From the NCBI RefSeq assembly GCF_058153355.1, contig NZ_CM177019.1: a stretch of DNA of 64,000 bases; one strand, written 5' to 3'. Positions 62,931-63,045 of the stretch are shown in pieces (position 1 is the first letter of the stretch; the number at the start of each line of letters is the position of its first letter). Below the pieces are notes generated by a model that saw only the letters and a list, made by a program, of their open reading frames with translations, did no database searches and was not told the origin of the DNA. The translations under genes and the position numbers were made by a program.

Positions 62931-63020
62931 AAAAGCCAGCACCCGGCTGGCTAAGTAATACTGGAAGCAATGTGAGCAATGTCGTGCTTTCAGGTTCTCC
63001 GCGAGGGTCTTCCTGATCGC
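62931..63020 (-). ncRNA. ryhB: RyhB small RNA (Fur-repressed iron-sparing sRNA)
   Basis: Reverse complement reads GCGATCAGGAAGACCCTCGCGGAGAACCTGAAAGCACGACATTGCTCACATTGCTTCCAGTATTACTTAGCCAGCCGGGTGCTGGCTTTT with terminator hairpin and U-tail; sits in the yhhX-yhhY intergenic region. Confidence 0.92.
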
Positions 63021-63023
63021 GAG

Positions 63024-63045
63024 ACAATAATAATCATTCTCATTC
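63024..63045 (-). promoter_or_regulatory. Fur box in ryhB promoter
   Basis: acaataataatcattctcatt immediately upstream of the RyhB 5' end. Confidence 0.7.

Follow-up and report, generated by a model that had tools for sequence, protein, structure and literature searches.

Does the spacer between yhhX and yhhY in this chromosome carry a complete gene for the small RNA RyhB, together with the signals that would place it under the control of Fur, and is it the same gene as that of Escherichia coli K-12? The question arises from a sequence-only reading of the 64-kb stretch of DNA analyzed here (the window), which claimed a full-length RyhB match on the minus strand of the yhhX-yhhY intergenic region, with a terminator and an upstream Fur-box-like sequence, and which remarked that ORF-based annotation misses it. 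The location is borne out by NCBIfam equivalog models for both flanking genes. The next gene downstream on the same strand is the oxidoreductase gene yhhX (61771-62808, minus; NF007574, 777 bits), and the divergent neighbor on the upstream side is yhhY (63142-63630, plus; NF007527, 320 bits), which encodes a GNAT N-acetyltransferase. The intergenic region between them spans 333 bp (62809-63141), and the 3' end of RyhB lies 117 nt from the start codon of yhhX.

When the whole 64-kb window was scanned with Rfam at gathering thresholds, three matches were returned. One of them, to the RyhB family (RF00057), lies on the minus strand at 62927-62991; it reaches 83.1 bits, where the gathering score is 55 (E 3.6e-14; E 3.1e-16 in a local Rfam scan), so that the outcome named in advance as refuting the reading, a score under the threshold, did not arise. 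All 67 positions of the model (1-67) were matched, and both helices were paired with zero non-standard pairs flagged. The RF00057 model represents only the 3' two thirds of the RNA and the 5' stem-loop falls outside it; the claim of a full-length match therefore rests on alignment with E. coli K-12 MG1655, in which the segment from 63020 to 62926 on the minus strand is identical at 95 of 95 positions to the annotated ryhB (b4451), 5' stem-loop included. In the curated K-12 MG1655 record, this gene is annotated as a 95-nt ncRNA between yhhX and yhhY. The position and orientation are the same in the window, in K-12, and in strain 2020CK-00188, with the RNA between the two genes and on the strand of yhhX. 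Identity to K-12 extends beyond the RNA over the entire promoter side, up to the yhhY ATG. Thus, the sequence-only reading was right both about the family and about the full length of the match.

The gene occupies 62926-63020 (minus), as defined by K-12 identity and RF00057, with the starting G at 63020 and the 3' end within the run of U at 62926-62934; in the 90-nt form usually cited for RyhB, the end would be near 62931. A promoter scan of the minus strand located a -35 hexamer, TGGACA, at 63051-63056 (-36 to -31) and a -10 hexamer, TATTAT, at 63027-63032 (-12 to -7), which together match 10 of 12 hexamer positions and are separated by an 18-nt spacer. The -10 hexamer ends 7 nt before G 63020, the base at which the K-12 RNA begins. 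The putative Fur box, GACAATAATAATCATTCTC on the plus strand, covers 19 bp at 63023-63041 (-21 to -3) and agrees with the consensus GATAATGATAATCATTATC at 16 of 19 positions, which substantiates the Fur-box-like sequence claimed earlier. It is the only site in the 64 kb with three or fewer mismatches to the consensus, where shuffled sequences lead one to expect 0.01; the next-best sites have five mismatches, and one of these is an overlapping register of the same 63023-63041 cluster. The predicted box covers the -10 hexamer, and bound Fe-Fur would therefore block RNA polymerase. The K-12 Fur site, which has the identical sequence, was predicted at -15 of ryhB with a score of 25.2 bits, and a gel shift verified it (PMC2189734).

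At the other end of the gene, a Rho-independent terminator was identified at 62926-62952 (minus) from a terminator scan, the length of the U run, and the pairing in the Rfam alignment. Its hairpin (62952-62934) has a 7-bp stem with five G-C pairs and a 5-nt loop, and is followed by nine T, the long U tail of RyhB family members; here, too, the earlier claim holds. A second terminator-like hairpin, at 62903-62887, was not accepted: it is weak, contains G-T pairs, and has a poor T tail, and ca. 0.8 such sites are expected by chance in the region. The interval originally proposed for the element, 62931-63045, includes the Fur box and the -10 hexamer along with the RNA in its 90-nt form, but stops short of the -35 hexamer and of the last few U residues.

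The predicted fold of the RNA comprises a 5' stem-loop (nt 1-20, 63001-63020), which is identical to that of K-12 and was obtained as part of the minimum-free-energy structure, a weak hairpin at the center, in which nt 37-51 are presented, and the terminator. This fold is consistent with the consensus structure in Rfam and with an earlier description of a C37-U51 hairpin (PMC4666370). The overall folding energy is no better than that of shuffled sequences (z -0.59, with 53 of 200 shuffles folding as well), which is not unexpected for a largely single-stranded, Hfq-dependent RNA. The target-pairing loop, CGACAUUGCUCACAU, corresponds to 62970-62984, and its core, GACAUUGCU (nt 38-46, 62975-62983), is the exact 9-nt complement of AGCAAUGUC, which spans -4 to +5 of sodB and so includes the start codon. 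The core can thus pair with the sodB mRNA around its translation start; the K-12 gene was used here, as the sodB of this strain lies outside the window. When full-length RyhB was allowed to pair without constraint with positions -60 to +40 of sodB, RNAduplex gave -35 kcal/mol, a value equaled by 71 of 500 shuffled RyhB sequences; because this energy is indistinguishable from that of shuffles, which again is not unexpected for such an RNA, we rely on the nine exactly complementary nucleotides at the site described in the literature.

Because the RNA is identical in sequence to that of K-12, the published mechanism can be transferred to it with high confidence. With plentiful iron, Fe2+-Fur would occupy the 19-bp box over the -10 hexamer and the start site and block transcription; when iron is scarce, Fur would leave the DNA and the sigma-70 promoter would fire from G 63020. 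The terminator, with its GC hairpin and U run, would then end transcription and yield an RNA of ca. 90-95 nt, whose U tail and hairpin would bind Hfq. The exposed loop (nt 37-51) would pair with the ribosome-binding regions of the sodB, sdhCDAB, acnB, fumA, and bfr mRNAs, which encode non-essential iron proteins, and this pairing would block translation and lead to RNase E-dependent decay of the target mRNA. The mechanism and the set of targets come from published work. Fur represses RyhB, and upon iron limitation the mRNAs of non-essential iron proteins are repressed, in what is termed the "iron-sparing" response; ca. 50 targets are known, including the five named above, on which RyhB acts via Hfq and RNase E, and the C37-U51 hairpin is the site at which hybridization nucleates (PMC4666370). 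In Hfq-dependent sRNAs generally, the Hfq-binding module consists of the terminator hairpin and the 3' poly-U (PMC4509938).

We regard it as virtually certain that 62926-63020 is ryhB, on a chromosome of the Escherichia/Shigella type, and that it specifies the Hfq-dependent sRNA of the iron-sparing response, which Fur represses. What was observed at the level of sequence is identity to K-12, membership in the Rfam family, synteny, the way in which the promoter, Fur box, and terminator are built, and a 9-nt stretch complementary to sodB. From work on the identical K-12 sequence, we infer that in this strain the box would bind Fur, the RNA would bind Hfq and be induced in low iron, and its targets would be repressed. 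The region has every defining feature of the RyhB family that can be tested in a sequence, and we found no evidence against its being ryhB. It is a known element, and nothing about it is new.

The locus is conserved almost throughout the species. A search of 5426 complete E. coli genomes located it in 5424, in every case on the chromosome; the other two lacked a match, and in some genomes as many as three places matched. Over the 135 bp of RNA and promoter, identity is 99% or higher in 5413 of the 5426, whereas with a 351-bp query extended into the flanks it is 95-99% in 5410 complete genomes, showing that the RNA and promoter are more constrained than the surrounding spacer. When the window was aligned with K-12 and the nearest E. 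coli strain, no base was found to vary from the yhhY start codon to the end of the U run. The five differences from K-12, of which four are substitutions and one is a 1-nt insertion, all fall within the 117 nt that separate the terminator from yhhX (62809-62925).

Despite this near-invariance, the gene is left unmarked by ORF-based annotation and, in the non-K-12 strains that were sampled, by RefSeq. The six-frame list contains only meaningless overlapping ORFs at this position, and RefSeq has zero features under the match in the nearest strain and in six further strains sampled across the ranking, which supports the remark that annotation misses ryhB. A covariance-model pass is therefore needed to recover it, and the importance of the locus lies mainly in annotation quality.

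The same spacer can be read with yhhX as the main client of the promoter. The Fur-controlled promoter would then serve chiefly to drive yhhX, with RyhB as the 5' leader of a ryhB-yhhX transcript and the sRNA as a by-product of termination or processing, or both roles would exist side by side. We consider this unlikely. In its favor, yhhX is on the same strand, 117 nt past the RyhB terminator, and a promoter scan of 62700-63300 detected the ryhB promoter as the sole promoter-like site, hence none between ryhB and yhhX. Such a simple scan is insensitive, however, and yhhX may have a promoter of its own. The in vivo selection of Vassinova and Kozyrev, as cited in PMC2189734, first assigned the Fur site to yhhX. 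Readthrough of the ryhB terminator is reported to be frequent, but co-transcription with yhhX "has not been shown experimentally" (PMC4509938). According to the same work, Hfq binds the terminated RNA, which is the functional one, and not the products of readthrough, and iron depletion enhances termination. The terminator is also strong as judged by its GC-rich stem and nine U. Moreover, a ryhB-yhhX operon would supplement the function of the sRNA rather than replace it. If the readthrough operon did exist, YhhX, an uncharacterized oxidoreductase, would be under the control of Fur, with RyhB as its leader.

The chromosomal setting of ryhB also departs from that of K-12, with which the window is not collinear. 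It contains two inverted 1426-bp copies of IS4 that are 100% identical, at 21-1446 and 44675-46100. The first is flanked by a 13-bp target duplication, CTGCCGACGGGCG, which indicates a simple insertion. The second has no target duplication and is a hybrid that links the upstream region of glgP to a truncated dgoD (43665-44674), which breaks off at residue 336 of the 382 positions in the profile; the sign of the GC skew flips at this copy, from positive over 1-44 kb to negative over 48-64 kb. The dgoD-IS4-glgP junction occurs in none of the 5426 complete E. coli genomes, whereas IS4 adjoins glgP in many of them. The dnaA-dnaN-recF-gyrB cluster lies at 32924-38960, ca. 30 kb from ryhB, and the orientation of ryhB relative to dnaA is reversed with respect to K-12. 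In the simplest reading, these features may reflect an inversion by recombination between an IS4 beside glgP and an IS4 inside dgoD, the partner junction of which would lie outside the window. If so, the gene dosage of this iron-sparing regulator, and its orientation of transcription relative to replication, could differ from those in typical E. coli. We assign a small probability to this pair of readings, an iron-responsive operon of ryhB and yhhX formed by readthrough, and an IS4 inversion that placed ryhB ca. 30 kb from dnaA in reversed orientation.

Several other features were recorded in the window. An operon for long polar fimbriae of the lpfA-O113 type (1729 to ca. 6710) adjoins the first IS4 copy and is ca. 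94% identical to its best E. coli matches. AsdA (RF02674), an antisense RNA of the dnaA mRNA, is matched at 33446-33526 on the minus strand (100.9 bits; gathering score, 52), within dnaA (32924-34339, plus) and antisense to its Walker-A region, and the sRNA ES036 (CssrF) is matched at 39003-39045 on the minus strand (52.5 bits; gathering score, 37.6), a short distance downstream of the gyrB ORF. An island of low GC content (31%) occupies ca. 12300-16700, between phoU and yieH, where K-12 presumably carries the bgl and yie genes. It encodes a 396-amino acid pentapeptide-repeat protein (12716-13906, minus) and an 815-amino acid protein (14159-16606, plus) for which no match was found in Pfam, NCBIfam, or PADLOC; the homologs are named "type III effector protein" by RefSeq. 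The island is at least 95% identical in only three complete E. coli genomes (98.6% in two and 97.9% in one), with diverged versions in ca. 1100.

Two further explanations of the region fare much worse than a readthrough operon. The first, that it encodes a small protein, we judge to be extremely improbable. Its sole support is the presence in the six-frame list of three overlapping ORFs, of 61 amino acids (62842-63027, minus), 84 amino acids (62865-63119, minus), and 34 amino acids (62979-63083, plus). Both of the minus-strand ORFs begin upstream of the transcription start at 63020, the shorter of them with a TTG within the -10 hexamer, so that the RyhB transcript cannot encode them, and on account of these upstream starts the overlapping ORFs were dismissed as genes. 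The curated K-12 record has an ncRNA and no CDS at this locus, RefSeq has no CDS here in the other strains, and the covariance model accounts for the sequence fully. The second, that the match is a chance resemblance or the decayed, non-functional remnant of a ryhB gene, has a negligible probability, because the Rfam E-value (3.6e-14) and the 100% identity of the RNA, promoter, and Fur box to a functional K-12 gene exclude chance and decay, and because the locus is nearly invariant in 5424 E. coli genomes.

The assignment to ryhB can also be placed beside related regulators. PrrF1 and PrrF2 of Pseudomonas (RF00444) are Fur-repressed sRNAs that repress the mRNAs of iron proteins, and are functional analogs of RyhB. 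The PrrF model gave a match at 62925-63056, but with 21.3 bits against a gathering score of 90 (E 0.29), and the region is therefore not a member of RF00444; in a permissive local Rfam scan at ryhB, this sub-threshold match was the only one besides RyhB itself. The sgrS-setA locus resembles the one described here in that an Hfq-dependent sRNA is followed by a protein gene on the same strand, and readthrough has been documented for both sgrS and ryhB (PMC4509938). Co-transcription has been demonstrated for sgrS-setA, whereas for ryhB-yhhX it is a suggestion. The closest comparison is with K-12 ryhB itself (b4451; sraI; RF00057), from which the present gene differs in its surroundings only: in the five small changes in the spacer between the terminator and yhhX, in a chromosomal neighborhood rearranged by IS4, and in what follows yhhY. 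In K-12, yhhY is followed by yhhZ, yrhA, and IS1E; these are absent here, and ggt consequently adjoins yhhY directly (63631-64000 in the window), as it also does in strain 2020CK-00188. The 95-nt RNA, the -35 and -10 hexamers, the Fur box, the terminator, the position between yhhX and yhhY, and the orientation are the same in both.
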